IMG/VR virus record: IMGVR_UViG_647533110_000001
Strand: one strand, 5' to 3'
DNA length: 64,000 nucleotides
From: a virus
Lineage: Duplodnaviria; Heunggongvirae; Uroviricota; Caudoviricetes
A program made the translations under genes and the position numbers. Within the stretch, counting starts at the first letter, position 1; every line of letters begins with the position of its first letter. This document shows, one piece after another, positions 1,955-59,659 of the stretch. A model generated the notes under the pieces. The model had not been told where the DNA came from. It did no database searches and was given only the letters and a program-made list of their open reading frames with translations.

Positions 1955-2143
1955 ATGGATATAGAAAATAAAAACAGGGTTTCTGTAGAAGATATGAGAG
2001 CATGTTATGCTGAAAGATTTCCGTATGCACCCAATAATCAACGCATAGGACGATTTGCAAAACAAATAGGTTTCCGTCTTACCAAACAGATGGTTAAAGG
2101 GCAGATTATTAGTTTTTATATAAAAGATGATATAAGCAAATGA
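1955..2143 (+). CDS. hypothetical small protein
   Basis: 62-aa ORF, ATGA overlap with next gene. Confidence 0.25.
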   Translation: MDIENKNRVSVEDMRACYAERFPYAPNNQRIGRFAKQIGFRLTKQMVKGQIISFYIKDDISK

Positions 2144-3699
2144 GTACGTTTTCCGACAAATTCGATAACCACTGGAAGTGCATTCCATACGCAATGGCAA
2201 CGTTAACATCCAGTGATGGCTTTATGATTTTATTTCATCTGTTACGAAGAGGCTATACAGATGGGGATAAGACAACATGCGCCATATCCAACAAAGAACT
2301 AGCTGACGTCATGGGAACTTCTATTAGTTCAGTACGCCGGGCAATAGATACCTTGAAGCAACTTAATCTTATCAGCTGTTCTCAAAATAAAGGGGCACTT
2401 TGCACATTCTATGTAAATTGGAGCGAGATACGAGCAATACATAAAGTAAGTTCTCAAATATCAGATAAAGGATGGGTATATTTGCGAGGCTTGTGCTTAA
2501 ATAGCGAGGTACGTCCAATTTCAGCGATTCCATTGACCATATTGAACGATGTAGTTCGTCAATATCCACACACTTCGCTCAATATGAACACACCCTCGCT
2601 CAATATGAACACACCCTCGCTCAATATGAACACACCCTCGCTCAATATGAACACACCCTCGCTCAATATGAACACACCCTCGCAAATAGACGAAGAAAAA
2701 GGTGAAGACATAGAAAAACTATCAGAAAATATAGTCAAAGAGCAATCTAACCTCGTTCAATATGAACAGGGGTCCGCTCAATATGAACGAGGGTGCGCTC
2801 AATATGAGCAGGGGTGTGTTCATATTGAACGAGGGTCCGCTCATATTGAACAACAGAATAAGATATATATAGATAATATAGAGAATAAAGAGAATCATAA
2901 CGAACGAAGTGAGTTTAATAAAGAAACTGATATGAAGATTTTGGAATGGTTCAATTCTCGTGACTTATCTTTTCCAGATCTTTCTTCTTCTGATTTTGAA
3001 ACTATCATTAACCTTCCAGATTTTGCCGATAATGATTTTGATATGGCAATAAGAGAAGTTTGGGGATACTTGCAATATGATGAAGACTCTCCAGGTAATT
3101 ACATTCCAGCTGAATATTTCAAAGATATTCTTTACCGTGCTTGGAATGATTTAAAAACTATCAATCCGGATTTCTCTCTTTCGGAACAAGACATGAAGAA
3201 TATTTTTGGATTCGATGTTGAGATGCAGAATGGAGAACCTGTATGTTATGTGACTCCCAGTAAAATTAAAAACATCAATCAATCTCCTTCATCTTCCAGA
3301 AAAATTAAACGGAAGGGAGTAGGGGACCGAACCTCCAGATTAATATTTCTTGAATCTATCCGACAAGTCGCTGAAAGAGATACGAACATGTTGACAGATG
3401 CCGAATATGCAATATGGCTTATGATTGAGTTCGTGAAAGAACGGGAGAGTAATCAGCAACCTCGTCCATCGGAAGTGACAAAAGCAGTTTATGAAGATTT
3501 GCTTAAACGTTTCTCAAACGAATCGAAGGTACCTGTGGAAGATTTGAGAACCCTCTGGAAAGAACTTCCTCAAAAAAATACAGTTAAACTTCATCCTCAA
3601 CAGTTATCAGTCGATAAGATTATAAACTATAACGTGCAAGTAAATCAGGCAAGTGATGTGGAAGAGCTTTATAACAAAAAGATGGCAGAACAACCATGA
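2140..3699 (+). CDS. replication-initiator-like winged-HTH protein with internal iterons
   Basis: N-terminal wHTH (ELADVMGTSISSVRRAIDTLKQLNLI); tandem PSLNMNT x5 and AQYEQG-type peptide repeats encoded by DNA iterons; acidic C-terminus. Confidence 0.55.
   Translation: MSTFSDKFDNHWKCIPYAMATLTSSDGFMILFHLLRRGYTDGDKTTCAISNKELADVMGTSISSVRRAIDTLKQLNLISCSQNKGALCTFYVNWSEIRAIHKVSSQISDKGWVYLRGLCLNSEVRPISAIPLTILNDVVRQYPHTSLNMNTPSLNMNTPSLNMNTPSLNMNTPSLNMNTPSQIDEEKGEDIEKLSENIVKEQSNLVQYEQGSAQYERGCAQYEQGCVHIERGSAHIEQQNKIYIDNIENKENHNERSEFNKETDMKILEWFNSRDLSFPDLSSSDFETIINLPDFADNDFDMAIREVWGYLQYDEDSPGNYIPAEYFKDILYRAWNDLKTINPDFSLSEQDMKNIFGFDVEMQNGEPVCYVTPSKIKNINQSPSSSRKIKRKGVGDRTSRLIFLESIRQVAERDTNMLTDAEYAIWLMIEFVKERESNQQPRPSEVTKAVYEDLLKRFSNESKVPVEDLRTLWKELPQKNTVKLHPQQLSVDKIINYNVQVNQASDVEELYNKKMAEQP
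2575..2679. repeat. 5 perfect tandem 21-bp iterons TCGCTCAATATGAACACACCC
   Basis: direct reading; five exact head-to-tail copies inside the CDS 2140..3699. Confidence 0.9.
2745..2855. repeat. degenerate iteron cluster in both orientations (CTCAATATGAAC / GTTCATATTGAAC), followed by an AT-rich tract to ~2960
   Basis: five further copies of the iteron core, the last two inverted; AT-rich stretch follows. Confidence 0.7.
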
Positions 3700-3744: not shown

Positions 3745-4659
3745 TTATCTTATTTCGGGTTCGGCTAAAAAGTTTCTTCTAATTTCTATTTCTTCAGACA
3801 GTATTCTAATCGCATCTTTCTCTCTTCGAAAATAATTGCCTGCCAGATAACGTTTATTGCTTGTTACAGTTCCTTTTTCCACATCTGAAGTAACTTGCAT
3901 CTTATCTGTAATATACCAGTAGCGTTCTCCTGTAGCTACTTTCATGTTCAAAGGCTCAATTCGTTTTAGAAAATGATTCCATGTCTTACCAACCTTAGCT
4001 AATTCTACATCCAGAGCCTTTCTTTGATAATCCGCTGGCTTGAAAGTTGTGAACGAGAAATCATCTATTTTTCCCAAATACTCGTTCATGCTGTATTTAA
4101 CCGGTTCCCCTTTGATAACATAGCAATACATAACGATGTCTCCAGAGGATTTATCTGCAAGTCTTACGACTCCATATCCTTCTTGACCAGTTTTATGATT
4201 ATGGAAGCATACTAAATCACATGATTTGGGAATATATTTAGTGGAAATTACGAAAAATGGGTTGCCAAATTCCTGGCCATTTTCATCTAAAACTAAATAG
4301 AGGCGATTTAAAGCATTTTCTCCGGCTGGGGTTATAATGTCTACAGGAATTGTTATTTTGTCGAAATTAGGCGTGTTTCCGTCAATTCTAAGGCATATTA
4401 AAACAGTATTCACATTCCCTTCTTGTACCAAACCTATAGAATCGTTCCATTTTACTGCATCTCCAGCTCCAAATCCTTTGTCAAACCAGTTGGCAAATGT
4501 AGCGTAATCGAGAGCTTCAGGATCGTCTGAATAACTGGAAGGTACATGCAGCTTAATATTATATTCTGTTTTGCAATAAGAACTGATTCCTTTAAAGTCT
4601 ATCTCAGACTTATATTTTCTTTTTCTTAGAAAATGCTCTACTTGTTTTTTAGTTTTCAT
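3745..4659 (-). CDS. hypothetical protein
   Basis: 304-aa ORF, the only minus-strand gene in the first 30 kb; followed by a 900-bp AT-rich divergent intergenic region. Confidence 0.55.
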   Translation of the reverse strand: MKTKKQVEHFLRKRKYKSEIDFKGISSYCKTEYNIKLHVPSSYSDDPEALDYATFANWFDKGFGAGDAVKWNDSIGLVQEGNVNTVLICLRIDGNTPNFDKITIPVDIITPAGENALNRLYLVLDENGQEFGNPFFVISTKYIPKSCDLVCFHNHKTGQEGYGVVRLADKSSGDIVMYCYVIKGEPVKYSMNEYLGKIDDFSFTTFKPADYQRKALDVELAKVGKTWNHFLKRIEPLNMKVATGERYWYITDKMQVTSDVEKGTVTSNKRYLAGNYFRREKDAIRILSEEIEIRRNFLAEPEIR

Positions 4660-6459
4660 ATTTGGATAAAATAATCAATTGTTAGGCAAATGTAATATGA
4701 TTTTTTGATAAACATCAATTTGGATATAAAAATTTAGCTTAATTACCATAAAACGAGACTGAAAAAATAGGTGGCTGGAAAAAATCAGAAAACTTATATA
4801 TTGAATTTTTATATCATTGTCAATTTGAATATATTGGGAAATAATTATTTCTCTGTATTATAAAAATAAAGTTAATAAATTGATGCTGGGATAATTACAG
4901 AATCTCTACTTCCAGATTCGATATATTATAAAATTAATGTTAGAAATTGGAGATAATTTTATTGTATTGAATAACGTGGTCTGGAAGAGAATTGGCTTTT
5001 TGTACTATGATCGACTTTTGAAAAAACGAGATTGAAAAATCAGGTCGGATTATATATACGGTATTCGCTCCATAATTGACCGGCTCTGCCTTCTTTTTTT
5101 TATATTTTTTATTGCCATATTGCTGTAAATCAGTTAATTATATTGTTTCACTAATATACAAAAGTGAAACAAATGTGCTTTTGTTCTTTGTTTTGCCTAT
5201 TCTTTTGTTTTTGATACTCTTTTGAAATTATTACAAATTTACCCTTTTGTGTATGTGATTTGTTCCCGTTCCTTTTTGCATCCAGGTAACAACATCTCGC
5301 GCGCGTATATGTGTGCGTATGTGTGTATGTGTGTCGTGATTTGCCCTAATAAGTAACCACGCATACACGCACGTGTGTTGGGAATGCTTATTTAATTGAT
5401 TATCAATTGTTTATAGACGGTATTCTTTGTTGTATATTTATATATTGCTGAAAATCAGATGTTTATAAATTATTTTTAGTCTTAAAACGAAATTAATTGA
5501 TTATTTATTTGTGTATATCAAAACATTGCCATATCTTTGCAACGTCAAGTTAAGATAACGGCTACTTGATAAAGTGTTTACTTTCCGTTTTGGTTTTATC
5601 TGTAAACCTACAAAAAGCGAAAACCGCAAACAGATACGAGATAATAAACGTAATTAATAACCGTAAAAACAAGAAGTAAGAAACGGACAAAAGAAAGTAG
5701 TACATAAAAGCAAAAGGAGTGCGAAAGCGAAAGCAAAAGCGCACGCTCAGACATAAAACGGGATGTTTTGTGAACGGGGAAAAGAATACCCATAACTGTA
5801 ATGGTCAGTTATTAAAGATTGTCATGCAAACCGTCGCTGGCACTATGGGGGAGCTATATACATAAGTCTGCTACAAAAGCGTGCCATAGGTGCGTAGCTC
5901 CATGCAGCAAAAGGGAAAAGCGTGGGCTTAGTGCCATAAGTGTGCCTGTCACACTTGCATACCGAAAAACGGATGTCTGCGCAAAGGTGTGAAAATCTGC
6001 CCCTAATGCGAACTGAGAAAAGGTGAGCCAAAAGTGCGTGAAAACGTAAAACTGACTCTGTCGAAAGTGTGCCCAAGTTGCACCACCGTAATCACCAACG
6101 CAACGCAGCCCTAACAGTGAAGAAGTGTATGCCAAAAGTGTGCTTTAACGGTAACGATGGAAATTACCTACCACATAGGCGAAAGCGTATGTAAAAAACT
6201 GCAATTCAATCGGTTTGGTTGCAGTTGGTGAGCACTCATACACAAGGCGCACGGCTCCGTTGCGCTGTTAGTGACGGGCAAAAAGTTGTACATAGAGTGT
6301 GCTGGATAGGTGAATGTCCAGTATGCTCTGATTGGGCTTTAACGCAATCGAAAGCGTGTAAACGTTTTCGGTGGTGCGTTCCTATTTTGGTAGGTCGGGG
6401 TTCGATTCCCCGATTGCCTACAATGCGCTATTGCAGAAAATTCCTAAAAAACAGTAATC

Positions 6460-7152
6460 ATGGGAACAATTAGTAGGTATAACAGTGTACAATTTGAGAA
6501 CTTAAACGCAAACGAGTTGGTAGGCGTAACTTTGGTGTATAAGAGTGTAAACCGTGATGGAGAAACGCATTATTCAGGACTGAATTTTGCCGGTGATGAA
6601 TACACGCCAAAGGATAAGACACAGGACGAGATTTTCCGCGTGTGGAAAAATGTGGTAGCTACGTTCTGGACTGTGAAAGCGGTGGAAGCTGGGTTGCGTG
6701 AAGATAATGGTGGTATTGCATCCAAATTGCGTAGCGGTACACCGGCTGAAATCATAGTGCGTACAAGTGATTGCAAAGTGTCAAAGAAGTGGGATGTTGA
6801 GGGAAGTGTATGGAGCCGTATTGGTTTGGTGCCTACAAAGAAAGACCTGGATTGTGCAGCGCGTGATTTTAAGAAGAAAATCCATGCTGCTACAAAAGCG
6901 TCTTTCGATGCTCTGAAATTCCGTTTGAACTTTGAAGAAGTAGCCGCAAAAGCTGCTGACTATTATGAAATCTTGGGTGTGAAGCATGATGCTACGGAAG
7001 CGGAAATTAAAGCTGCATACAAACAAGCTGCTAAATCTGCTCATCCTGATGCCGGTGGTTCCAATGAAAAGATGCAAGAGGTAAATGCAGCATGGGAAGT
7101 TCTGGGAAATGCTCAAAAGCGTGCGGAATATGATGCGCGAATGGCTGCATAA
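6460..7152 (+). CDS. J-domain (DnaJ-like) protein
   Basis: C-terminal J domain DYYEILGV...AAYKQAAKSAHPD with HPD motif; N-terminal region unknown. Confidence 0.7.
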   Translation: MGTISRYNSVQFENLNANELVGVTLVYKSVNRDGETHYSGLNFAGDEYTPKDKTQDEIFRVWKNVVATFWTVKAVEAGLREDNGGIASKLRSGTPAEIIVRTSDCKVSKKWDVEGSVWSRIGLVPTKKDLDCAARDFKKKIHAATKASFDALKFRLNFEEVAAKAADYYEILGVKHDATEAEIKAAYKQAAKSAHPDAGGSNEKMQEVNAAWEVLGNAQKRAEYDARMAA

Positions 7153-7460
7153 ATAAAGAACTGGTAAGTCATAACATATATAGCACGTCTGGAGGTGAAT
7201 ACAGGCGTGCTATTTTTATGGGTAAAACGAACGTGGAAGCGCAGCGTGCAAGAAGTGCGAGTCTTTGTTACCCACTTTAATTGTGGCATGTACTTTTGAG
7301 TGCGTGCCATTTTTGTGTCTGATTGTAAATTTTAAAAAATAAAGCATGAAACGAGCAAGAATCCAAAGAACGAGCGTGAAAATCATTTCTACCTCTTGTG
7401 CAAGTATGACATTTTATTTGCCTAAATCTCAAAATGTTACTGTGAAGCGGAAAACTGTGT

Positions 7461-15116: not shown

Positions 15117-15429
15117 ATCAGAAAAGACTCGTATCGCTGGAACCCAATATGATAGACGAATAAAGCTCACTCCAGACCAAAAAGAATATATAAAATGGTT
15201 GAGAGAAAAGCAATTAATCAGTTACTCTAAACTTGCTAAAATATTTGGAGTGAGCAAGCGTCTTATTCAATTTATTTGTTGCCCAGACAAATATTTGAAA
15301 AATAAAGAGAGTTTAAAACAACGTAAAGCAGAAGGGCGATACAAACCTACAAAAGCAGAATGGGCAGCAACAATTCGTGAGCACAGGAGATATAAGGAAC
15401 AACTCAAAAAGAAAGGAGATATAAAATGA
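15106..15429 (+). CDS. small HTH DNA-binding protein (transposase/resolvase-type HTH), paralog of 21119..21427
   Basis: KLTPDQKEYIKWL...LAKIFGVSKRLIQFI resembles IS-transposase N-terminal HTH; ATGA-coupled to the RT gene. Confidence 0.55.
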   Translation: MPYKSEKTRIAGTQYDRRIKLTPDQKEYIKWLREKQLISYSKLAKIFGVSKRLIQFICCPDKYLKNKESLKQRKAEGRYKPTKAEWAATIREHRRYKEQLKKKGDIK

Positions 15430-16694
15430 AAGATAAGATTCTTACAATGTTCTTCGACATTAATAGATGGACAAAAGCAATTGAGAAAGGCGTTCTGAAG
15501 GATATTCGGAAGAGCGAACTTATCAAACTGACAGAAGAACCAACCAGAATTCGCATGGCAGAAGCTATGTTGAATGGTAAATATCAAATAACACCACCAC
15601 ATATTGCACAAATCCCGAAGGATAACGGAGAGTTTCGTACTGTATATGTCAATGAACCTATTGACCGTATAATCCTAAACATCGCGAACGATTTGTTATT
15701 TGATTTAATGCCAGAGATGATTCATCCTGCTTGTAAATCTTATCAGGTCGGTATTGGTTGCGGTAAAGTGGTTCTGGAAGTAAGTCACACAATTGTTGAC
15801 ATGAAAAGTGATGGTTATGTGGGCTGGAAATCTGATTTAAGTAAATATTTCGACACTGTTCCTATCCGGTTTATTGACGCAGCTTTTGATAAGGTAGAAG
15901 CTAAGTATGGTCACTCTGTGTTAATTGATGTATTAAGAAAATACTATCATTGCGGATTGTATTTCGATGAGAACAACGAACTGCATGAAAAATATCAATC
16001 ACTTAAACAAGGATGCGCAGTAGCAAGCTGGTTAGCCAACGTGTTGCTATATAGCCTGGATGATGAACTGTCCCAATTGAATGGGTTTTACGTAAGGTAT
16101 TCGGATGATATGTTGTTCGTTGGTCCGGACTATGAAAAGGCTATGACCATTTTACAAAAGAGATTGGCCGAAAAATCAATGAATTTGAATCCCAAGAAAG
16201 TAGAGTACCTGACTATGGACAAGTGGTTTAAATTTCTAGGTTTCAGCATTAAGGGAAGTATGATTTCTTTCTCTCCCAATCGTCTTAAAACCTTCCAGAA
16301 AGAAATAGAATCAAGAACCATCAGAAAACGTGGTATTACGTTGAAGAAGGCTGTGGATTCGGTTAACCGATATTTATATAAAGGCAATGGAGAATATAGT
16401 TGGGCGACTCAGACCCTTCCAGTATGTAATGTTCGGGTTGATATTAATGAATTGAATAAATTCGTAATGGATTGCCTTAGAGCCGTTGAAACTGGGAAAC
16501 ATAAAGTTGGTGGCCTTGGCTATGTTAAGGATAAGCCGGATGGTTGTGTTGTTAGAAGTATTGGTCGGAACGTAAAGGCTAATCGAAATAAATCTAAGAG
16601 TAAAGAAATTGAAGGTTATTTGACAATAGGTTGTATGCAGAATGCTATTTTGACCAGAAGAGCAGCGTACAATACTTTAGTGGCAATATTGTAA
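15426..16694 (+). CDS. reverse transcriptase, unassigned class
   Basis: RT motifs 1-7: IPKDNGEFRTVY, GWKSDLSKYFDTVP, LKQGCAVASWLANVLL, YVRYSDDMLFVG (YxDD), LNPKKVEYL, FKFLGFSI; no En/maturase/DGR IGxxxSQ signature. Confidence 0.85.
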   Translation: MKDKILTMFFDINRWTKAIEKGVLKDIRKSELIKLTEEPTRIRMAEAMLNGKYQITPPHIAQIPKDNGEFRTVYVNEPIDRIILNIANDLLFDLMPEMIHPACKSYQVGIGCGKVVLEVSHTIVDMKSDGYVGWKSDLSKYFDTVPIRFIDAAFDKVEAKYGHSVLIDVLRKYYHCGLYFDENNELHEKYQSLKQGCAVASWLANVLLYSLDDELSQLNGFYVRYSDDMLFVGPDYEKAMTILQKRLAEKSMNLNPKKVEYLTMDKWFKFLGFSIKGSMISFSPNRLKTFQKEIESRTIRKRGITLKKAVDSVNRYLYKGNGEYSWATQTLPVCNVRVDINELNKFVMDCLRAVETGKHKVGGLGYVKDKPDGCVVRSIGRNVKANRNKSKSKEIEGYLTIGCMQNAILTRRAAYNTLVAIL

Positions 16695-30844: not shown

Positions 30845-30904
30845 GTATTATTTGTGTATATCAAATACATTGCTTATTTTTGTTGTATTATTAACTATAA
30901 GAAC

Positions 30905-45643: not shown

Positions 45644-47026
45644 TCATTTCATCAACTCAACAACATCTTCCGGCAACATCGCATTCCCTGCATCATCTTT
45701 CGGAGCATTCTTAAGGAGCAACATCGGAACAATGGTATAGTTCTTGGCAAACGGCAATAAATTAGCCTTGCGAAGAAGTTCAGTTGTTAACTGTTTACCA
45801 TTCTCTTGATTTGTCCATTTACATTCTCCAACCAGCAGATATTTTTTATCAAGAGATTCAGCCATTACATCAAATTCCACTTGTTCAGGCTTCTTATCCT
45901 CATTGAGAACAGAACCCCACCAGCGTTTTGCCTTACCGTAAACAATTCCATTGACCATATTTCCCGTTACAGCATCCCTGCATAGTTTTTCCCAATGCAT
46001 ACTCACATACTCCGAGAAATGGGCTGCCAATGCCTGTTCTAATGGTAAACGACGACCAAGCTCGATGAACGAACGGTTAGGCACGACAAACTGATAGTAG
46101 AATGCCATAAAAGGGTCTGCAATCTTATATAGGCTCTTTTTTGCATTCTTTTCGTCAATTCCGAACGGAACATCTTTCTCTAAAAATCCGAGGTCAATAA
46201 GTTTCTTCAATGGACGTGACAGATTAGTTGCAGGCTCATTACATCTGGCAGCAATCTCAGAAAGACGATTTGCACCGGATCCGATATAGGACATGATTGT
46301 AGAAGTCTTGACAATGTCCTTCACATCATCTTGAAACAGTTTTATCGGCTCCTCGTAAAGAGTGCCATTTACAGAAAGGATATTGTGCCACAACGCATCG
46401 GAAAGTGAACTTCTGTTTTCTCGCAGTTCCCAGTAACGAGGCACACCGCCCCATACAGCATACTCTTCAACGGCACCCACAGCGTCAAGGTTCAAAGCCT
46501 CCTGAATATACGGCAAGCGTATAGGCATAAGTCTCATAATCTCATCAGCACGGCCATAGAGAGGTGCCGTAGAATCAAGAAACAGTCCATACATCATATT
46601 TTGCGATGAACCACAAAGTACAAGATTATACTTCAACTGCTTTTCATCAACAAATTTCTGCAACACTGACGGCAGTTCCGGGGATTGTTCCACCAGATAC
46701 GGAAATTCATCCAGGCATAGCGTGAAACGCTTGTCTGTGCGATAATTGACCGCACGAAACAGAGACTCCCAATCCGGATAAGTCAACTTGTCAAAATCAG
46801 GAAATACTTGTGCTACTACCTTTGCAAGTAAAGTCCTTTGGTGCTGTCCTTCCGAACGGTCAGCAAGGAAATATACATCACTGTCCGACAACACCCTTTT
46901 GATAAGTGTTGACTTACCCAATCGCCTGCGACCGTACACTACGACCAACGAGGACTTCTCTCTTGAAAGAGCATCCCTCAGTCGTGCTGTTTCTTCTATT
47001 CTATCAACGAAGTTCATATTCAACAT
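45644..47026 (-). CDS. AAA+ ATPase (Arch_ATPase/DUF234-type ATP-binding protein)
   Basis: Walker A GRRRLGKSTL; Walker B LCLDEFPYL. Confidence 0.7.
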   Translation of the reverse strand: MLNMNFVDRIEETARLRDALSREKSSLVVVYGRRRLGKSTLIKRVLSDSDVYFLADRSEGQHQRTLLAKVVAQVFPDFDKLTYPDWESLFRAVNYRTDKRFTLCLDEFPYLVEQSPELPSVLQKFVDEKQLKYNLVLCGSSQNMMYGLFLDSTAPLYGRADEIMRLMPIRLPYIQEALNLDAVGAVEEYAVWGGVPRYWELRENRSSLSDALWHNILSVNGTLYEEPIKLFQDDVKDIVKTSTIMSYIGSGANRLSEIAARCNEPATNLSRPLKKLIDLGFLEKDVPFGIDEKNAKKSLYKIADPFMAFYYQFVVPNRSFIELGRRLPLEQALAAHFSEYVSMHWEKLCRDAVTGNMVNGIVYGKAKRWWGSVLNEDKKPEQVEFDVMAESLDKKYLLVGECKWTNQENGKQLTTELLRKANLLPFAKNYTIVPMLLLKNAPKDDAGNAMLPEDVVELMK

Positions 47027-47109
47027 TAATTATGTATTGCAAACATAATGATTATGCAGCATAATACAAAATTTCAAGCCAAGTGTTTTTCTATATGGCA
47101 AAAGAATTT

Positions 47110-48900
47110 AATGTAAGGTAAGCGTCTCCAGGATGCCGTATCAGCATAAGAAAAGCAGGGTCACTGGCCCTGCTTGTTCTTTTTCCAGCGGTCTGGAAGT
47201 ATATCTCTGTACGCTTCCAGTGTGGCGGACCTCTGCAAGACATCCGCTCTGTTAAGTATGTCTGTGAGGTACTCGAAGAAGTTTATCTTGTGCAGCCTGC
47301 ATGAACATGCGAGAGAGTAGAAGATGCAGCCACGCTCTGCTCCGGCATGGCTGCCGAAGAAAAGGGAATTCTTTCTGGACAAGGATATGTACCTGTTGAT
47401 TCTCTCAATGAGATTATTGTCCCACGAGTAGTCTCCACCAGTAGTTATAGCTTCGATACCATCCCATTCGTTGAGCATGTATTTGGCGGCCTTGAACATC
47501 TGCGACTTTGGAGGATATTTCCGAGGTTGAGACTTGATCTTGAGAAGCATCTCCTTCATCTGCCTGAGTATATGAGACGCATACTCCTGTCGCCACCTCA
47601 GATTATCTTTGACCGTCCAGCCGTCTTCTCCGATCTTATGCTTATGTTCATTCTGATAGAGCTGATTGGCTAGAGTCAGTATCTTGTCTGCATCAGCATT
47701 GCCTTTCATGTCCAGGAACTCTCTCTTGCAATGCTGAAGACAGGCTAGTCTTAATATCTTTCCTCCGGACTGTGCTGCGACTTTCTTGTAAGCTCCCAGG
47801 CCATCTGACTGTATCGCTCCGCTATATCCCTTGAGCTCTTTCAGTATTACCTCTTCGCTTCTTGAACCATCATCATAGAAGAAGTATGCCAGGCCGAGAT
47901 GTGCTGCTACAATCACCCAGACATAACCCTTGCGGCTTCCCTTGCCGTCATTCAGTTCCTTCTTTACGAGAACTCTGTGGTAGGTCTCATCGCAGCAGAG
48001 ATAGTTATCTTCTTTGACTGCCTTCTGCATCGCCTTGTATAAGTTTTCGAACAGAAGTGCTGTCTTCTTCAGCAGCCCGTGAGCGGTCTGTTTGTCGATA
48101 TTGAAGCCGTTCTCGTTAAAGTACGCCACGATACGTTCCACCGGCATTGAGTACAGATAACGGAGCTGGGCTATGCCTGAGATGAACGACCCGTCGAAGC
48201 TGGAGTTCTGAAGAGGTGCAAGAGGAGCCTTTGCGCTTACAAGCTTATCTCCATCCTTTACTGTGTGGATATAATACAAGTGTTTGATGAACCTTGGAGG
48301 TATCATCTCATAGCGGACAGTCTCTCTTGTACTGAGCGGCTTCCGTCCTTCCATGCCGTCAGGATACACGTCATGCTTGACTGTCTCCATCTCGAAATGC
48401 ATATTACGCTTTGCACCATTGTTACCGCGGGACTTGCGCTCAACTTCCTTCTGAGCAATCTCTTCTTCTGTCTTAGGAGTTACTGGAGTAGATGCTTGTT
48501 TCTCTGACTTCTTCTCAAGAAGCTTTGACATGCCACGAACTTGATTGTTGGCCTTGTCGAGACTCTTGTCGCGTTCTTTCAGGAGAGACTCCAGATTCGC
48601 TATAGTCTCGCGAAGCTCTGAGATGGTCACGACCATGGCATTCATGCTGGCAGACATGTTGTCAATAGTGAGTCTCAGCTGATCGTTTGTCGCATTCGAC
48701 GCCTTCAGCCGAGACTCCAAAAGTTTGATTATCATGTCCTTTCCCATACATCTAAGGTACGAAGAAAAACGAGATATGTAATAGTTTTTAAGATTTATTT
48801 TATTGGTAATATTCTTAACCATCTTAAAAATATACACTTAAATATTTTATAATCAATATATTATAAGAAAGGTAATTTTAATGGAGAAACAAATAAGGAA
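47110..48900 (-). mobile_element. IS66-family insertion sequence, single ORF; boundaries approximate
   Basis: terminal GTAAGCG motif at ~47116 as in IS66 inverted repeats; opposite inverted repeat not found; no tnpA/tnpB ORFs. Confidence 0.45.
47161..48747 (-). CDS. IS66-family transposase
   Basis: N-terminal coiled coil; DETYHRV, GYVWV, DGLGAY and CLQHCKREF (zinc/H..RRxF) motifs; C-terminal DNNLIERINRYISLSRKNSLFFGSHAGA..YSL; start chosen at MGKDMII. Confidence 0.8.
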   Translation of the reverse strand: MGKDMIIKLLESRLKASNATNDQLRLTIDNMSASMNAMVVTISELRETIANLESLLKERDKSLDKANNQVRGMSKLLEKKSEKQASTPVTPKTEEEIAQKEVERKSRGNNGAKRNMHFEMETVKHDVYPDGMEGRKPLSTRETVRYEMIPPRFIKHLYYIHTVKDGDKLVSAKAPLAPLQNSSFDGSFISGIAQLRYLYSMPVERIVAYFNENGFNIDKQTAHGLLKKTALLFENLYKAMQKAVKEDNYLCCDETYHRVLVKKELNDGKGSRKGYVWVIVAAHLGLAYFFYDDGSRSEEVILKELKGYSGAIQSDGLGAYKKVAAQSGGKILRLACLQHCKREFLDMKGNADADKILTLANQLYQNEHKHKIGEDGWTVKDNLRWRQEYASHILRQMKEMLLKIKSQPRKYPPKSQMFKAAKYMLNEWDGIEAITTGGDYSWDNNLIERINRYISLSRKNSLFFGSHAGAERGCIFYSLACSCRLHKINFFEYLTDILNRADVLQRSATLEAYRDILPDRWKKNKQGQ

Positions 48901-49597
48901 CAAAAATAGGAATTAAAGTGATTTCTCATTTTTCTATTTGCACTCTGTTTCTTTCTTTTCGTTTGTTTGCTTTCAGAGTGCATTCCGAGCAATTTTATCT
49001 GCTCTCATCATTCGAAGAATTTGCTCCTAACTTTAACTAACAAATTATTTGCAGCTCATAAAGAGAATACAAATTATTATCTCTTGAAGTTGTATTGCTT
49101 GTAGCAAAGATAATCTTTTTTGTACAGGCAGCCAAAAATGCCTGCCTATATTTAGTTTAATTTAGTTTAGCATATATAAGGCTAACAAACTAAACCAAAC
49201 TGGATTTTCATGTTACTTTTTGTGATTTTCCCATTCTACCCATACAGCCAAAAGAGAAGATAAGCTCTTGCCTCTTTTCTCTTTTCGCTGCGATACTCTT
49301 TTACTTCATAGCCACCTTTTACACACATCCGTACCGAGCAAACTCCCACATGCTCGCATATCAACTTTCGGTCTGCCCGATGGGAATTGTGTCGCAAAGG
49401 TATTTGCCATGTCTTTATTGTATGCAAGGTTGTAACCTGAAGGTTCACTACAAAATCTCCACGCTCCGCTTCGCAGAGGTAGTATTTTGTAGTGAAACCC
49501 TGCATACATAGCCATGCCACCTGTTGAAGCGACATAATTTCAATCAAGCCCGAAAGTAAGTGAAATGCTACAGGAGGGAAAGTAACAAACTTAAAAC

Positions 49598-49909
49598 TTG
49601 GTATTTATGGCAAATTATGCAACCAACATTTTCCACGCAAGAACGGAAAATAAAACAGACCTCGACAAAATAGAGGCTTTCTTGGATGACACTTTCAGCG
49701 AATTTACCAATCGATATGGTGATAGTGTAGATGCAGAATTTTCCTCTCGTTGGGTGTATCCAGAAGAAGAAATCAAAAAATTGGTAGAATCGTTGGAGGA
49801 CAAAGATAAAGTCTATATCAAGATTCTAACCTATGAATTTGAAGACGAGTACGTGAGCTTTAGAATATTCTCTCAGGGAGAATGGAAGGTCAAATTAATA
49901 ACTGAATGA
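49598..49909 (+). CDS. hypothetical protein
   Basis: 103-aa ORF. Confidence 0.4.
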   Translation: MVFMANYATNIFHARTENKTDLDKIEAFLDDTFSEFTNRYGDSVDAEFSSRWVYPEEEIKKLVESLEDKDKVYIKILTYEFEDEYVSFRIFSQGEWKVKLITE

Positions 49910-50091
49910 GTAGAAGAAGATAAAGTAAAATTATGGTCTATCCTACACTTTGCTTATTCTATAAGAGACACACGGATGGAACGATTGTCGGTGATTTCGA
50001 CAACAAAATCACTGTTCGTTTCATCTGTGGCAAAGAGAGAGTATTAAATACTGTGATGAAGTAATTTTTACAATTTTACAACATAGAAACC

Positions 50092-50421
50092 ATGACACAG
50101 ATAGCAATGAAATTCGTCCAATGGGATGTGCCCGAATTGGAAAAACTGAAAGATAGCAAGGTTTACAAATTACGGGAACGTCTTGATAATGGCGACAAGT
50201 TGAGTCGGGAAGAAAAGAACTGGCTCACCCGCAATGTGAAAGAGTGCTGCCATTTCAAAAGAGGTATCGCTTTAATGGGCTACCGTTTTGACTTCTCCGA
50301 TGTTCTCAAACGGTATTTCGTGAAACAACACGGACATATTGCCGAATATTATACCATTGACAAAACCGCACTACGTTCTGTCCTATATGGTCGAATTGAA
50401 GATATAATCGAAGTACAATAA
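50092..50421 (+). CDS. hypothetical protein
   Basis: 109-aa ORF. Confidence 0.45.
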   Translation: MTQIAMKFVQWDVPELEKLKDSKVYKLRERLDNGDKLSREEKNWLTRNVKECCHFKRGIALMGYRFDFSDVLKRYFVKQHGHIAEYYTIDKTALRSVLYGRIEDIIEVQ

Positions 50422-50435
50422 AAATCAAAAGAAGC

Positions 50436-50789
50436 ATGAAAGTAACAATTGAACACAGCTTTTGCCCCTATTGTGACGAGGTAACTGAACTTTATTTCCG
50501 AATCATTAACACGATTCTTTTTTCTGGCAATGAGGCGGAATTGCGTGAAAGCATGAGACAGTTGGAGAAAAAAACTCCACTTGATGAATATTTCACATAC
50601 GGTTACGGTGCACGACACCTTTGGGTTTGCCAGCGACGTCCCAGCGACAAAACCAAAATATTCGAGCATGATTCCACCTCCCTTTATAGTTCACCTTCCT
50701 CCGATATAGTACGGGCAATCCGTTCCGGTTGTCCGTTACCCTGTTTTAACACCCCTGTTTTACAGTTTTATTCATCCCTTTCTATTTGA
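50436..50789 (+). CDS. hypothetical protein; C-terminus runs into direct repeat copy 1
   Basis: N-terminal CPYCDE zinc-ribbon-like. Confidence 0.4.
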   Translation: MKVTIEHSFCPYCDEVTELYFRIINTILFSGNEAELRESMRQLEKKTPLDEYFTYGYGARHLWVCQRRPSDKTKIFEHDSTSLYSSPSSDIVRAIRSGCPLPCFNTPVLQFYSSLSI

Positions 50790-51030
50790 TTGTCATTTAT
50801 TATCGTTTCGCTGCTGCCGTGCGACCTCTCGTGGACTTATTTTCCCGCAAAGGTAATAGGCTGCTCCAATCTTGCCAATGCCGGCGTTCCGCCGCGAGTG
50901 AGCCGCAAAAATCTTCCTCTCCGTCTGTCGAGCGTATTTTCCCGCATCAGCCTTGTCAGATTGTTTCCGCCACCTTTTGGAGGCAGAAAAATAAATCCCA
51001 AAGGTCGCAAACAGGTTGAACAAAGGGAAA
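50670..51030. repeat. direct repeat copy 1 (~360 bp), about 97% identical to 53588..53955
   Basis: aligned by eye; identical except for a handful of substitutions and one 1-nt indel. Confidence 0.9.
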
Positions 51031-51058
51031 TAGTAACAATAAAAACAAAAATAACATT

Positions 51059-51280
51059 ATGAAAACAGAGATTAGGCAGAATGGCAAAGTGATACTATCG
51101 AGTACAGACGATATATCCATTCCGATGATTTTCAAAAACTTATGTGGTAAGAACTTTTCTGGAAACGACTATCAAAACTATCTCAGAACAGTTTGTCAGG
51201 ATATTGGTGTTACGACGGGGGCGATTGAGTATTATGCCGACAACGTTTTGATTGAGAAAGCAACTATTCCTGAATTTTAA
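51059..51280 (+). CDS. hypothetical protein
   Basis: 73-aa ORF, first gene after repeat copy 1. Confidence 0.4.
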   Translation: MKTEIRQNGKVILSSTDDISIPMIFKNLCGKNFSGNDYQNYLRTVCQDIGVTTGAIEYYADNVLIEKATIPEF

Positions 51281-51292
51281 AAACTATATACA

Positions 51293-51865
51293 ATGAAAAG
51301 GAAAGAGAAAGCAGCAGTAGATGAATTTGTTGCCCTTGTAGGAGGCAAGACATGGGAGCCTGTACGCCATAAATGTATGGGTAAATGGAGTGGTATGACC
51401 GATTACGGTTTTGTCATAGACGGACGGATAACGCTCTTTGTTTCCAATAGTATGGCATACTTTAAGAAACGGATTCGTGAGTGGATTAAGTCGATACATA
51501 CTTTTGAAGCGAAGAAAGATTGCTACCTTCGCTTGCTACGTGAACAAATTGAAAAGGACAACGACAAGGCAAAGGACGAAAAGTTAAATCCTGTCAGACT
51601 GATAGACATTGGCATCTTATCCCCCGAAAGCAATAGCCCGTTTGATTTTTTTACCCCTTATGTGTTAGTCGAAATAAACGGCAGGCGGTTCAAGCATCAA
51701 ACAGCGGAGTTAAGTTGCGCTATTATGGTGGATAGTTTGGCAGGATACCTTGAAGAATGCAACTGCAAGGATATATACACGGCAAGGGCAGTGCGTACAC
51801 CTGACTACATTTTTTGCGGTGTGCGGTTTGACTCCCGTGATAATATGTATAAGATTGGAAAGTAG
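51293..51865 (+). CDS. hypothetical protein
   Basis: 190-aa ORF. Confidence 0.5.
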   Translation: MKRKEKAAVDEFVALVGGKTWEPVRHKCMGKWSGMTDYGFVIDGRITLFVSNSMAYFKKRIREWIKSIHTFEAKKDCYLRLLREQIEKDNDKAKDEKLNPVRLIDIGILSPESNSPFDFFTPYVLVEINGRRFKHQTAELSCAIMVDSLAGYLEECNCKDIYTARAVRTPDYIFCGVRFDSRDNMYKIGK

Positions 51866-52004
51866 AGATTAATGATGTCTGAAGAAGTTATCACTTACAA
51901 CGATAACTCCAGTCGTTTTAAAGGACGGCATCAGCATTTGACCTACTAAATACATAAGTTCCCAATTTACGATTGGAGACTTATGTATTTTTCTGTATGG
52001 AAAA

Positions 52005-52358
52005 CTAATCAAATAATCGCTGACTTATCATCCAGTCATTAAGCACGTCCGGATCTACACGATTTGTAAGATTCACATTTTTACTCAAACAACCGATTTT
52101 CTCACCTCTTAAATAAATAACTGGTGGGGTTAATGTATTCGGATTGTATGGACTTAACGATGAACTGGGACTTCCATATATGGAATACCGATTCTTGAAA
52201 GATATACTTGAAAAGTGACTACCGTATATATTCTCGTTGTTGGATATGGAATCAGGAGTAGATGTGTTCAACGACAATCTGCCTAAATACAAACCGTCAT
52301 TTGCCAATAGAAACGATTCTTTCCTTGAAATTCTGGTATCTAAACCTATTCTATCCAT
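52005..52358 (-). CDS. hypothetical protein
   Basis: 117-aa ORF. Confidence 0.4.
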   Translation of the reverse strand: MDRIGLDTRISRKESFLLANDGLYLGRLSLNTSTPDSISNNENIYGSHFSSISFKNRYSIYGSPSSSLSPYNPNTLTPPVIYLRGEKIGCLSKNVNLTNRVDPDVLNDWMISQRLFD

Positions 52359-52377
52359 GCCCTATGATTTAACGCCA

Positions 52378-52863
52378 TTATTTAATAATGCCATAACGTC
52401 TTTTAGTTGCATTATCGAACACCTCTGTCTCTCTTAGAAACTGCATTACCCGTTCCCTGTCTTCGGAAATCAGGCAACCTTTCAGTTTACCGTTCTTTTC
52501 CGTGATTTTTAATTTTGAAAGTTCGAATATATCGGAACAATCCAGCCAACTGTCATAGTCCAGAATATCACGATAGTTCCGAACCATCAAAGGATATTGG
52601 CAGTCCAGTAGCTCTTCCGACCTCTTGGAAGAATCTATTTCCGAATTTATCAGTAAGGCACCGATAGCGACACCTTCCGGAGTAAAGCCGATAATAACAA
52701 TATATTTATTGCGGTCTTTATATCCGTCTTTTAGTATCAGTCCGTCCTCTTCGTCCAAGGGGACATAAATAATGTCACCAATTTTGACTGATGACATATC
52801 TACTTGCTCAGCTTTGGCCATTATAGCTTTCAGCCTTTCCAATGCACCGGTTTTGTCGTCCAT
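52378..52863 (-). CDS. candidate toxin partner of Panacea-domain protein
   Basis: 161 aa, starts 6 bp after the Panacea gene stop on the same strand. Confidence 0.45.
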   Translation of the reverse strand: MDDKTGALERLKAIMAKAEQVDMSSVKIGDIIYVPLDEEDGLILKDGYKDRNKYIVIIGFTPEGVAIGALLINSEIDSSKRSEELLDCQYPLMVRNYRDILDYDSWLDCSDIFELSKLKITEKNGKLKGCLISEDRERVMQFLRETEVFDNATKRRYGIIK

Positions 52864-52868
52864 TTGAT

Positions 52869-53459
52869 TTAAGATAAAGCGTTCTTGACAATCTGCTTTT
52901 CTCGGATATAATCTACCATGTCCTCGGTAGCTTTTCCTGCCCGGGCTATATCTATAATGGTAATGAAGTTCTTTTGAGGATCATCCTGAATGCGTGTCAT
53001 CGCCTCTTCCCATGCCGAGTCATGCGACAAATCGGACAAGTCATAAGGGTCTGTATCCTTATATTTAGCGATAGCAGCGTCAAGACAACGTTTGTTGGCA
53101 CCTGATATATAGTCCATATCGGGTACGGCAGAAGTATATACCTTCTTGTCACGAACCTCTATGTCTGAAAGGAACTCGTCAAAATTCCCGTCCAAGGGTT
53201 TGCCTTCTGCAATTTGCAGTGCCTTGTAGGTATAGGCTGGCACCGGGCCATGCTTCAATGCTCTGAAAGAGTCTTCGACAATCACTTTGCCATATTTGAC
53301 AAGATGGTCCTGTTGGGCAAAATAAAGTATTTTAAATAACTTTATATAGTCCACTCCTTGAGTGAAACTCTGCATGATGTAGAGTACCACTGCTCTTATT
53401 TTAGCAATCTGTATAGCTGTTTTCATTTCAAAAAAATCTATGCGATTACAAAGATACAA
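52869..53459 (-). CDS. Panacea-domain (DUF4065) protein, putative antitoxin
   Basis: KLFKILYFAQQDHLVKYGKVIVEDSFRALKHGPVPAYTY matches the Panacea core KLxKLLYFA...AW.YGPV. Confidence 0.55.
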   Translation of the reverse strand: MYLCNRIDFFEMKTAIQIAKIRAVVLYIMQSFTQGVDYIKLFKILYFAQQDHLVKYGKVIVEDSFRALKHGPVPAYTYKALQIAEGKPLDGNFDEFLSDIEVRDKKVYTSAVPDMDYISGANKRCLDAAIAKYKDTDPYDLSDLSHDSAWEEAMTRIQDDPQKNFITIIDIARAGKATEDMVDYIREKQIVKNALS

Positions 53460-53587
53460 CTAATTTGCTGAATAATACGCTCATGATACAAAAAAAATAG
53501 TCCGTTGCATTTTTTTACGACATTTAATATAGTCGTCATTCTGAGAGTAATAGTCTGCAATTATCAAGAGATGGGCCAATCCACCCG

Positions 53588-53955
53588 ATTCCACCTCCCT
53601 TTATAGTTCACCTTCCTCCGATTATAGTACGGGCAATCCGTTCCGATTGTCCATTACCCTGTTTTAACACCCCTGTTTTACAGTTTTATTCATCCCTTTC
53701 TATTTGATTGTCATTTATTATCGTTTTGCTGCTGCCGTGCGACCTCTCGTGGACTTATTTTCCCGCAAAGGTAATAGGCTGCTCCAATCTTGCCAATGCC
53801 GGCGTTCCGCTGCGAGTGAGCCGTAAAAATCTTCCTCTCCGTCTGTCGAGCGTATTTTTCCGCATCAGCCTTGTCAGATTGTTTCCGCCACCTTTTGGAG
53901 GCAGAAAAATAAATCCCAAAGGTCGCAAACAGGCCGAAAAAAGGGAAAAAAAGAA
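53588..53955. repeat. direct repeat copy 2 (~360 bp), leader of the methylase-helicase gene
   Basis: same sequence as 50670..51030; ends just before ATG 53966. Confidence 0.9.
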
Positions 53956-53965
53956 AGGTTAAATT

Positions 53966-56900: not shown

Positions 56901-57082
56901 GGGCTAAATTACAAGAACTGCGTATGAAAATCAATAATCGGAAAGACGATGCTGTGGACTTCCACACAATGGGAATAGACCATATTTTTGTAGATGAATC
57001 GCATTATCAGAACTTTTTTGAAAATTCGGCTTTTGTTGGTAAGATGTTAGTGTATAATATGTTACAATATTATATTTTCTGA
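53966..57082 (+). pseudogene. N6-DNA methylase/SNF2-helicase fusion gene, 5' part, interrupted by an insertion at ~57010
   Basis: MTase motif VIASNIPFGNF, helicase Walker A HEVGTGKTM and DESH; frame leaves homology right after DESH and stops; continuation resumes at 62994. Confidence 0.7.
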
Positions 57083-57418
57083 TTAATATCTATAGTAGGT
57101 TTGCAGAAGAAATTTAATTTGTTATTTTGGAAAGTACAGAGATTTACAATTCTATTATAAAATGGGGCTTTAATGCTTATCTATTGAATCATAAAAGCAT
57201 TTCCTCTAAAAGACAAAGGTAAGATAAATGCAATATCAAATTCAATAATCCCAACTTATGCTTGCATATTCCAAAGCATAAAACATACACTATGCTGATA
57301 GAAGGAATAAATAGTTCTTTCCACCAACTATTAATAGCAATCATCAATAAGACCTTAGGTTAAGAAAACAACTTAACAAAAAAACGAAATCAGCAATATT
57401 ATCTCAATCTATTTGTTT

Positions 57419-57979
57419 TTAGTGAACGATTAGATCTTTTGGAACAATTGCATCAATTTCATCTTCTTCTGTTGTTGATTCCTTGTTTGTTCTCAACGCT
57501 TTCTCAGCTCGTTTTACAGCAGCAGGAAAAGTATGAGGTGCTTTAATATACAGCAAATCTTCTTCCTCTCGTAATTCATTTCTTTTATCTACAATTTCAT
57601 TATCATTCAACAATCCGGCTAAAATATCTGTCATTAGAGATTCGTACTTATTCCTTAGGTCATGTAATTTTGCTGCAAAATTTTTGTTTAATTTAGCCTT
57701 TTCTTCAAGTTGTCCATCTTTATAGCGCACTGTAAAATAAGACAAAAGTATTGCTAAGAAAGCTGTAATTGATCCTGATATTTGAGGCTCGATAAAAGAT
57801 AATATGGAACTCAAAGCACCACCTGTCGTAAGGACAGACAACCAGCATGTAATATTTTTCACGCATCGATCTTTTTCAAGATATATATCCCCTTGAATCT
57901 CTTGAATTTTGTGTGACCACGTTACTTTAACATAACGTCCTTCTATACATTTATATAACAAACGAGTTGATTCATTCAT
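57419..57979 (-). CDS. 2-TM protein, candidate SLATT-like effector
   Basis: two adjacent TM helices (ITCWLSVLTTGGALSSIL / ITAFLAILLSYFTV) then charged helical tail; overlaps upstream gene stop. Confidence 0.45.
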   Translation of the reverse strand: MNESTRLLYKCIEGRYVKVTWSHKIQEIQGDIYLEKDRCVKNITCWLSVLTTGGALSSILSFIEPQISGSITAFLAILLSYFTVRYKDGQLEEKAKLNKNFAAKLHDLRNKYESLMTDILAGLLNDNEIVDKRNELREEEDLLYIKAPHTFPAAVKRAEKALRTNKESTTEEDEIDAIVPKDLIVH

Positions 57980-59476: not shown

Positions 59477-59659
59477 TAAGAATCGTTTTTAATTTTATTA
59501 AAAAATAGCAAATTTCGTGCCAACACATTAACATATTTAGAATTTCAGACATAAGAAAGGACTCTTTGTCTGATTGGCACAATTTAGTTGGAATATCAGA
59601 CAAAGTGTCCTCATAGGTTAGGGAAATATGCCAACTAAGAATATTTAAAAGTATAAGAA

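Follow-up and report, generated by a model that had tools for sequence, protein, structure and literature searches.

Large ornate RNAs of bacteria and phages are rare, and most of them have no known function. GOLLD and ROOL are large multi-junction RNAs from phage and prophage contexts that are often found near tRNAs, possibly through co-transcription (PMC5737381). The candidate structured RNA motif Bacteroidales-2 (Rfam RF02943) comes from the work of Weinberg et al. 2017 (PMC5737381), the main text of which does not discuss it. A literature search returned no text on Bacteroidales-2 as an RNA, nor on tRNA-like elements in Bacteroides phages. Other non-coding RNAs contain parts that imitate a tRNA. 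Among those of bacteria and phages, tmRNA embeds a T-arm and an acceptor mimic that are recognised by tRNA enzymes, within a domain that joins its 5' and 3' ends, and it carries a tag open reading frame (ORF). The bacterial Y RNA YrlA also has a tRNA-like module, likewise with these two parts, which tRNA enzymes recognise. For the long RNAs MALAT1 and MEN-beta, Wilusz and colleagues reportedly described in 2008 a tRNA-like 3' processing module, mascRNA. The subject of the present analysis is the block at positions 5560-6460 of a 64,000-nucleotide stretch of DNA from a virus of the Caudoviricetes (IMG/VR record IMGVR_UViG_647533110_000001; the whole stretch is called the window), which adjoins a gene for a J-domain (DnaJ-like) protein. 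Comparative sequence analysis makes this block a well-supported, non-random locus for a structured RNA encoded on the plus strand. Like GOLLD and ROOL, the RNA is large and multi-junction and occurs on contigs classed as viral. It differs from them in that it matches neither in sequence nor in structure, in that it is fused to a dedicated tRNA mimic and not to a normal tRNA gene, and in its fixed link to one protein gene.

The covariation of the predicted helices and the contrast between strands carry this conclusion. Consensus structures were obtained with RNAalifold for both strands, from 13 sequences for 6085-6430 and from 12 for 5780-6090. In the former region the plus strand reaches -95.9 kcal/mol with 94 pairs, 12 of which show compensatory changes, against -71.7 kcal/mol, 77 pairs and 5 compensatory pairs on the minus strand. 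The contrast recurs in 5780-6090 (-48.9 against -27.3 kcal/mol, 64 against 41 pairs, 18 against 6 with compensatory changes). Over both alignments, 30 base pairs have compensatory changes on the plus strand. Pair counts point the same way, with the qualification that the structures were predicted from the same alignments and the counts are flattered accordingly, a bias from which the slid-partner controls and the strand contrast are free: in 5780-6090, 97.0% of the cells are paired (90.5 +/- 0.5% in shuffles), compensatory pairs number 18 (10.1 +/- 1.8 in shuffles) and the covariation score is 0.257, compared with 0.144 in shuffles and 0.03-0.08 when the partners are slid, and 0 of 500 shuffles attain the observed values. 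For 6085-6430 the corresponding figures are 99.4% of cells paired, 12 compensatory pairs against 6.1 and a score of 0.163 against 0.117, which none of 500 shuffles reaches. When sequences are folded singly, the plus strand is more stable by 4.6-16 kcal/mol in eight of eight relatives, despite being the poorer of the two in G+U, and the minimum free energy of 5790-6425 in the window is -213.7 kcal/mol (z = -3.5) on the plus strand and -181.3 kcal/mol (z = -2.5) on the minus strand. GNRA tetraloops (GAAA, GUAA/GCAA) cap helices in the plus reading only (5729-5732, 6182-6185 and 6358-6361), and within the group of close relatives the covarying helices break into A.C mismatches when the minus strand is read. 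On these sequence grounds, the constrained strand of the window RNA is clearly the plus strand.

The block lies in a 1.8-kb gap without genes (4660-6459), between a minus-strand gene at 3745-4659 and the J-domain gene, which it abuts, as first described, with the ATG at 6460. With a GC content of 22-32%, positions 4660-5500, which form the left half of this gap, are AT-rich. The description of the block as GC-richer is correct relative to this upstream zone (44-49% in 5700-6400), whereas its GC content about equals that of the downstream gene. Likewise, the tract at 5610-5790 is T-poor on the plus strand, but to call it almost devoid of T was too strong. The claims concerning coding potential are borne out, since 5560-6460 contains no ORF longer than 93 amino acids and the six longest ORFs have no Pfam match at E<=1. 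The idea of a decayed pseudogene was rejected, as the block ORFs give zero Pfam matches. Among close relatives, column identity is at least 0.9 over 5560-6460, except in an insert at 6021-6064, and about 0.75 in the AT-rich flank. Taken as a whole, the original prediction of a large structured non-coding RNA beside a tRNA-like element is upheld by covariation, strand asymmetry and conservation, while its comparisons with GOLLD and ROOL and its repeat array are not supported and its minihelix without further arms gives way to a cloverleaf. An Infernal scan against the Rfam models of GOLLD, ROOL, HEARO and OLE returned no match at gathering thresholds or at E<=10, and Rfam scans of the window gave nothing but chance-level matches in the block.

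The terminal element had been presented as a T-arm closed by an acceptor-like helix, GTAGG/CCTAC, with neither a D arm nor an anticodon arm. Its T-arm (CGGGG-TTCGATT-CCCCG, 6396-6412) is confirmed and has the form of a tRNA T-arm, namely a stem of 5 bp with G53-C61 as its closing pair and a UUCRAUU loop of 7 nt, with the stem taking the forms CGGGG/CCCCG, CGAGG/CCUCG, UGAGG/CCUUG and UCCGG/CCGGA among groups. The closing helix, in contrast, is probably non-native, for it suffers two A.C breaks in relative L020, while the pairs of the cloverleaf are never broken; its GUAGG strand is common to the helix and to the anticodon-like arm. Instead of an armless minihelix, the comparison of relatives favours a cloverleaf with four arms (Table 1), the pairs of which are kept and gain compensatory changes. 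In 20 compact versions from other groups, covariation is seen in the T-arm, the D-like arm and the acceptor stem (GGGCAC/GUGCCC), and all three show G.U variation when the plus strand is read. The length and the loop of the anticodon-like arm are free to vary, and it has no conserved anticodon. Because three arms covary whereas the anticodon-like arm varies freely, the terminal element is, judged from these alignments, a tRNA mimic and not a decoding tRNA. With a threshold of at least 29 bits for RF00005, or an ARAGORN call, six tRNAs were detected in the window at 38.5-41.4 kb and none at 6333-6420; the 7-bp acceptor stem and 7-nt anticodon loop of a tRNA are not found there, the element having 4-5 acceptor pairs followed by U.U and a 4-nt anticodon-like loop. 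After the element, all groups have CAAT and a small covarying hairpin (TGGC/GCCA in L016, ACGCA/TGCGT in L021), followed by an A-rich stretch. Two other viral contigs that the T-arm pattern retrieved, L060 (10880-11033, 11136-11248 and 12594-12695) and L063 (3983-4084 and 5380-5492), have tRNA genes of 102-154 nt; these fit the full Rfam tRNA model at 31-51 bits and are thus tRNAs with insertions of about 30-80 nt.

The best of the weak Rfam matches of the element (E<=10) are to mascRNA, with 22.4 bits over 6370-6418 (threshold 42.5), and to the T-arm of tmRNA, with 13.6 bits (threshold 47). In MALAT1 and its mascRNA, too, a long non-coding RNA ends on its 3' side in a cloverleaf that resembles a tRNA and has a reduced D region, and this pair serves as the model for the punctuation by RNase P and RNase Z proposed below, although mascRNA is a eukaryotic family and the score in the window, far below gathering, implies no homology. 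Nor does the element correspond to a tmRNA: ARAGORN makes no such call, the RF00023 match is limited to the T-arm, and the cloverleaf is local, whereas the tRNA domain of tmRNA joins the two ends of the molecule. YrlA and other Y RNAs gave no match among the Rfam hits of the window.

Relatives of the locus were collected by a search with the J-domain protein, which gave 43 loci on viral contigs, and by means of a degenerate T-arm pattern, which added loci from viral contigs, genomes and metagenomes; the metagenome loci listed are a lower bound. IMG/VR and metagenomes of the human gut are the sources of the contigs. Direct blastn of 5000-7200 against 50,697 phage records found no match, and megablast of 24 kb together with tblastn of the J-domain protein found unannotated human-gut 'Bacteriophage sp.' records only, with no cultured relative. 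A scan of genomes with the T-arm pattern, which demanded a trailing CAAT and so has no bearing on identity with host tRNAs, gave mostly unrelated matches, but found the module on one Bacteroides ovatus and one Tannerella metagenome-assembled genome contig. The relatives fall into a close, window-type group, in which the J-domain protein is 83-100% identical and the upstream region 72-99% identical, and a distant group, in which the J-domain protein is 50% identical. The layout in the distant group is the same, in that an AT-rich zone and then an A-rich tract poor in T come before a GC-richer block and the T-arm keeps its offset from the J-domain gene. The block there matches RF02943 at 262-432 bits in the same genomic place.

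Profile searches were needed for the comparison of the two groups, because direct blastn of the window against the distant group showed only the T-arm and an 18-nt motif. The fetched loci, 2.03 Mb in all, were searched with a profile hidden Markov model built from the window group over 5545-6330. It gave 24 matches outside the window type (<100 bits, E 5e-7 to 8e-3), all 24 of which lie inside RF02943 intervals and are antisense to the Rfam model, with the matching profile stretches covered. The reciprocal profile matches the window at 5882-5946 (E 9e-4). Blocks common to window-type and Bacteroidales-2 loci are a hairpin followed by UAUUAAAGA, then TGCAAACC, TGCCATAAGTGCGCCCAGTTGC, TGAGAAA and ATAATCACCA; the central domain (5905-6011), which shares TGCCATAAGTGCGCCCAGTTGC, is the stretch most like the Bacteroidales-2 loci. 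Two sub-structures correspond by inspection, namely a three-way junction with a UUAAAKA linker, and an outer stem enclosing UGCCAUAAGU and a hairpin with a CCWGU loop. When the Rfam consensus of Bacteroidales-2 is read on the opposite strand, it shows an outer helix, two hairpins and the UUAAAKA linker, as in the three-way junction of the window. The window RNA is therefore probably a divergent homologue of Bacteroidales-2, as far as the profiles can tell, and it lies outside RF02943 as that family is defined. Both occupy the same slot, between the A-rich tract and the sequence of GGUGAA hairpin, tRNA-like element and J-domain gene; they differ in that the window RNA has a different contiguous 3' core (6100-6290) where the relatives carry an AT-rich spacer, and in that its constrained strand is not the one modelled by Rfam but its opposite. 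What is new here is the tRNA-like terminal module, the promoter, the near-invariant linkage to the J-domain gene and the constrained strand opposite to that of Rfam. The locus thus combines a defined promoter, a 3' tRNA-like boundary and a near-invariant J-domain co-chaperone partner within a replication module, with two divergent sub-families open to comparison, and the Rfam entry for Bacteroidales-2 may need to be re-oriented and extended with the hairpin and the tRNA-like module.

The promoter consensus of Bacteroides is TTTG-N17-23-TAnnTTTG, of which TAnnTTTG is said to have been established as the -7 element by Bayley and colleagues in 2000. The sole full match on either strand within 4600-6500 lies at 5508-5539, its -33 and -7 elements are kept in relatives while the spacer is variable, and conservation climbs from about 0.75 to above 0.9 just downstream of it; the predicted transcript start is near 5546. 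A near-identical second copy, TTTGTGTATATCAAATACATTGCTTATTTTTG, is present at 30851-30882 (+), 24 nt before an ORF for an XRE-like helix-turn-helix protein (from 30906); the two copies suggest, as a sequence pattern, that the element has a promoter family of its own, in which the -33 region is extended. No canonical promoter and no terminator-like site was found on either strand of 5540-6460. As for the gene downstream, a J-domain gene follows the T-arm by 60-70 nt in at least 68 loci of Bacteroidales-2 type and at least 53 of window type that carry the T-arm pattern, and the order of RNA, tRNA-like element and J-domain gene is thus kept in at least 121 loci. Two window-type loci among the matches listed lack the J-domain gene, namely L173, in which the downstream sequence diverges right past CCTAAAAAACA, and one other metagenome locus.

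From these elements a rather probable mode of expression can be proposed, in which the block is the DNA for a plus-strand structured RNA of about 880 nt that is cut from the J-domain mRNA at the tRNA-like element. Transcription would start at the host-type promoter at 5508-5539 and pass in turn through a purine-rich and mostly unpaired 5' tract, a core of many helices (5790-6290), a hairpin with a conserved GGUGAA loop and the cloverleaf. We infer co-transcription with the J-domain gene because this gene has no promoter motif of its own and no terminator precedes its ATG; as a best guess, the transcript would continue into the gene as a single primary RNA. The tRNA-like element would then act as punctuation, with host RNase P cutting on its 5' side and RNase Z or the CCA-adding enzyme acting on its 3' side, so that the transcript would be divided into a non-coding RNA, folded and stable, and a J-domain mRNA headed by a short A-rich leader. 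The same punctuation logic operates with tRNAs embedded in operons, and it is by this analogy that processing at the tRNA-like element is proposed.

A closely related alternative is that the RNA is never released and works purely in cis, as a giant 5' leader of the J-domain operon in which the tRNA-like element would act to stabilise the RNA or serve as a handle for protein binding. The absence of a terminator or second promoter between the RNA and the ATG, the near-invariant J-domain linkage and the distance of 39 nt from the tRNA-like element to the start codon all agree with such a leader, which we regard as unlikely but worth keeping in view. At about 880 nt, and with conserved base pairs numbering some 150, it far exceeds known bacterial cis-regulators in size, its swappable cassettes and optional hairpins resemble those of free ornate RNAs, and a T-loop with an acceptor-like stem exactly at the boundary is a better fit to a processing signal, although none of these arguments is decisive.

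Several observations weigh against a released plus-strand RNA as proposed here, or against parts of this account. Many core helices are invariant in the available relatives. RF02943 finds no match in the window (gathering threshold 204.3 bits; none at E<=10 on 5000-6700 and 5700-6300), and covariance model R1, made from the central domain of the window, reaches the distant group, in the right place, with no more than 8.5-9.2 bits (E 6-9), which is not significant. The GTAGG/CCTAC helix gains one compensatory change in L016-18, and alternative conformers are therefore possible. The acceptor-like stem of the window is weak (4 bp, two U.U mismatches, 1 bp), and it is doubtful that RNase P or RNase Z would accept it as a substrate. 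Finally, all of 18 diverse loci of the distant group have a canonical minus-strand TAnnTTTG in the interval from Bacteroidales-2 to the tRNA-like element; in that group, too, hairpins followed by U-runs are found at the Rfam 3' end, and the folding energies of single sequences are strand-neutral.

These last points bear on a further alternative, which is that the functional RNA is read from the minus strand, as Rfam annotates it, or that both strands are transcribed and an antisense RNA controls the J-domain leader in a manner like plasmid copy control. In all 72 loci among the matches listed, the RF02943 model and the T-arm run in opposite directions, and the minus-strand -7 motif of the distant group points into Bacteroidales-2 in all 18 loci (in L021 it is found at 3782-3789 on the minus strand). 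RNAalifold gives the distant group a slightly lower energy on the Rfam strand, -60.4 kcal/mol, than on the other, -55.6 kcal/mol, and in the window the hairpin at 5719-5744 is followed by a T-rich run on the minus strand. The locus also lies within a replication module, the gene at 2140-3699 encoding an O-like or DnaD-like initiator. This alternative is nevertheless rather improbable for the window RNA, the fold of which is much worse on the minus strand, with A.C mismatches in the covarying helices, and the window group has no canonical minus-strand promoter or terminator-like site in 5540-6460. Even the distant group yields arguments for the plus strand. In the Rfam orientation, the Rfam helices of 21 non-redundant sequences contain 61 A.C against 37 G.U cells, 16 of the latter at one terminal pair, and the five cleanly aligned helices contain 23 A.C and no G.U cells. 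Moreover, the 'UUUC' loops of Rfam are GAAA on the plus strand, including that of an inserted CCUAC-GAAA-GUAGG hairpin; unpaired regions are A-rich on the plus and U-rich on the minus strand; and a conserved plus-strand TTTGCA-17-TATAAT lies to the left of the A-rich tract. Sequence signals on both strands suggest that the distant group may transcribe both, as a sense and antisense RNA pair. A broader and much more tentative picture, which we think unlikely to hold in full, is that of a new RNA module of phages and mobile elements, in which an ornate RNA, 0.4-0.8 kb long, carries a dedicated tRNA mimic that would hijack host tRNA enzymes for maturation or function. In some lineages the module would be opposed by a mirror-image antisense RNA with its own promoter, and it would control a chaperone and replication operon; Bacteroidales-2 would then be placed by Rfam on the wrong, or only the secondary, strand.

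The plus-strand RNA also accounts for the recurring AAAGYGTG motif, which the original prediction took for a possible protein-binding repeat array. Exact copies number 8 in the whole window over both strands (4.2 +/- 2.0 expected). Their clustering is real, with 5 of the 8 within 5876-6358 and all of these on the plus strand, but the eight copies claimed for the block are reached only with degenerate variants; the looser AARGYGYR has 10 of its 32 window matches within 5736-6358. Most cores run from an A-rich linker into a helix, whose 5' strand is rich in G and U, and two of them are instead a GAAA loop and 3' strand. For example, AAAG-CGUGGGC (5917-5927) pairs with GUCUGCGC (5975-5982), and relatives have in its place AAAG-UGUAAAC with GUUUACAC, or GCGUGGAC with GCCCACGC. 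A repeat array for protein binding is therefore not borne out, as the cores lie where helices begin on the 5' side, and a change at one of their G/Y positions goes along with a change in a distant partner strand. The corresponding alternative of an element acting as DNA, that is, an origin or operator array with AAAGYGTG as iterons for the neighbouring initiator, is very improbable. It could appeal to the local clustering of the motif, to the initiator gene nearby and to the strand-asymmetric A-rich tract, which could favour unwinding or an R-loop. The cores are not iterons, however, because their positions covary with distant complementary strands (in relatives AAAGCGTGGGC becomes AAAGTGTAAAC together with a change of GTCTGCGC to GTTTACAC); fixed and regularly spaced sites, as in an iteron-type origin, are not found in the block, where the spacing is irregular; a G.U asymmetry has no meaning for duplex DNA; and the AT-rich zone at 4660-5500 offers better candidates for an origin or operator.

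It is hardly credible, lastly, that the tRNA-like end is the remnant of a host tRNA gene, such as the core of a phage attachment site (attP), with decayed coding sequence making up the remainder. A T-arm with a 3' acceptor strand does resemble the usual target of integrases in tRNA genes, and ARAGORN calls the version of the distant group tRNA-Cys(GCA). All four arms covary among relatives, however, which means that the element evolves as an RNA in its own right. The Rfam tRNA model does not match it, in the distant group as in the window, and it lacks a conserved anticodon. The nearest integrase genes are 53 kb away, the block ORFs are without Pfam matches, and some indels are not multiples of three (2 and 43-44 nt).

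The features of the locus are collected in Table 1. In the 5' tract, the hairpin at 5719-5744 has a compensatory change of G-C to A-U in L020 (5721 with 5742) and an invariant 16-nt loop; an A-rich and T-poor tract of like nature is found at the equivalent place in the distant group. Helices 1-3 of the three-way junction (alignment A5) include 8 pairs with compensatory changes and have 99-100% of their cells paired. Inside the outer stem of the central domain are UGCCAUAAGU and two hairpins, one with a CCUGU loop and the other CCG-AAAAA-CGG; the stem changes among relatives from GCGUGGGC/GUCUGCGC to GUGUAAAC/GUUUACAC or GCGUGGAC/GCCCACGC, with G.U frequent and A.C rare. The core contains the helix GGUAA/UUACC, the GNRA-capped CAUAGGC-GAAA-GCGUAUG, an 11-bp hairpin (6199-6226) and a long-range helix of GUGUGCUUU (6138-6146) with AAGGCGCAC (6245-6253); its pairs are mostly invariant, so that these helices rest mainly on energy and G.U content. 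The hairpin that follows the core has about 47 G.U cells against 1 A.C, the minus strand cannot predict it, and a hairpin with an RGGUGAAW loop precedes the tRNA-like element in every related group. The RNA is a mosaic, in that a longer unrelated cassette stands in place of 5836-5909 in L004, L009, L019 and L020. Together with the 44-nt insert at 6021-6064, this swap indicates, in the sequences compared, a modular exchange of peripheral domains.

Table 1. Predicted features of the structured RNA locus and its boundaries, in window coordinates.
Feature	Position	Strand	Details
Bacteroides-type promoter	5508..5539	+	TTTG-N20-TATCTTTG (-33 and -7 elements)
Purine-rich, T-poor 5' tract	5610..5790	+	A 50%, G 22%, C 16%, T 12%
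Hairpin in 5' tract	5719..5744	+	GUGCG (5719-5723) / CGCAC (5740-5744), enclosing GC-GAAA-GC mini-hairpin (5727-5734); conserved
Three-way junction	5789..5849	+	Outer helix CCCAUA/UAUGGG; hairpins 5795-5809 and 5819-5841; linker UAUUAAAGA
Central domain	5905..6011	+	8-bp outer stem, 5920-5927 with 5975-5982
Optional peripheral insert	6021..6064	+	Hairpins including CGU-GAAA-ACG; only in the window, L001, L003, L005, L019 and L015
Most conserved core	6100..6290	+	95-98% column identity
13-bp hairpin	6293..6330	+	Loop AGGUGAAU; six compensatory pairs
tRNA-like cloverleaf	6333..6420	+	88 nt, four arms; RNAalifold and pair counts
Acceptor-like stem	6333-6337 / 6416-6420	+	UGGGC / GCCUA
D-like arm	6341-6346 / 6374-6379	+	AACGCA / UGCGUU, enclosing GNRA hairpin 6349-6370; two compensatory pairs
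Anticodon-like arm	6381..6394	+	CCUAU-UUUG-GUAGG (CCUAU 6381-6385, GUAGG 6390-6394)
T-arm	6395..6413	+	Loop UUCGAUU; stem covaries
Stretch between cloverleaf and ATG	6421..6459	+	Conserved CAAU, small hairpin UGC-GCUAUU-GCA (6424-6435), A-rich leader to ATG
J-domain (DnaJ-like) gene	6460..7152	+	Pfam DnaJ 8e-20

The AT-rich zone at 4660-5500, beside the replication-initiator-like gene, contains several repeats, namely an inverted repeat GTTTCAC...GTGAAAC at 5143-5171, an imperfect palindrome rich in CG and TG at 5296-5380 and the palindrome AATTGATTATCAATT at 5394-5408. The distant group has conserved counterparts of them (GGTTTACTTT..AAAGTAAACC, TTGATATTCAA and TCGCGCGTATGCGT), and from their sequence these repeats and palindromes are likely to be operator or origin sites.

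The description of the element as phage-borne calls for caution, for although its contigs are classed as viral, about 30 ORFs of the window were scanned without a match to a virion protein, and the element may be plasmid-like or a phage-plasmid. Besides the initiator-like gene and the tRNA cluster, the window encodes methylases, a restriction-modification-like gene and a reverse transcriptase (15426-16694; RVT_1, 4e-20). A link of the latter to a diversity-generating retroelement was considered and rejected, there being no direct repeat of at least 50 nt within 9-24 kb and no obvious pair of template and variable repeats. A cluster of mobile and defence-type genes at 45644-62872 includes an ATPase/DUF234 gene, an IS66 transposase (47161-48837), a gene for a 1038-amino-acid methylase/helicase (53966-57082), a SMODS nucleotidyltransferase (58535-59476) and, at 59660-62872, three tandem tyrosine recombinases.

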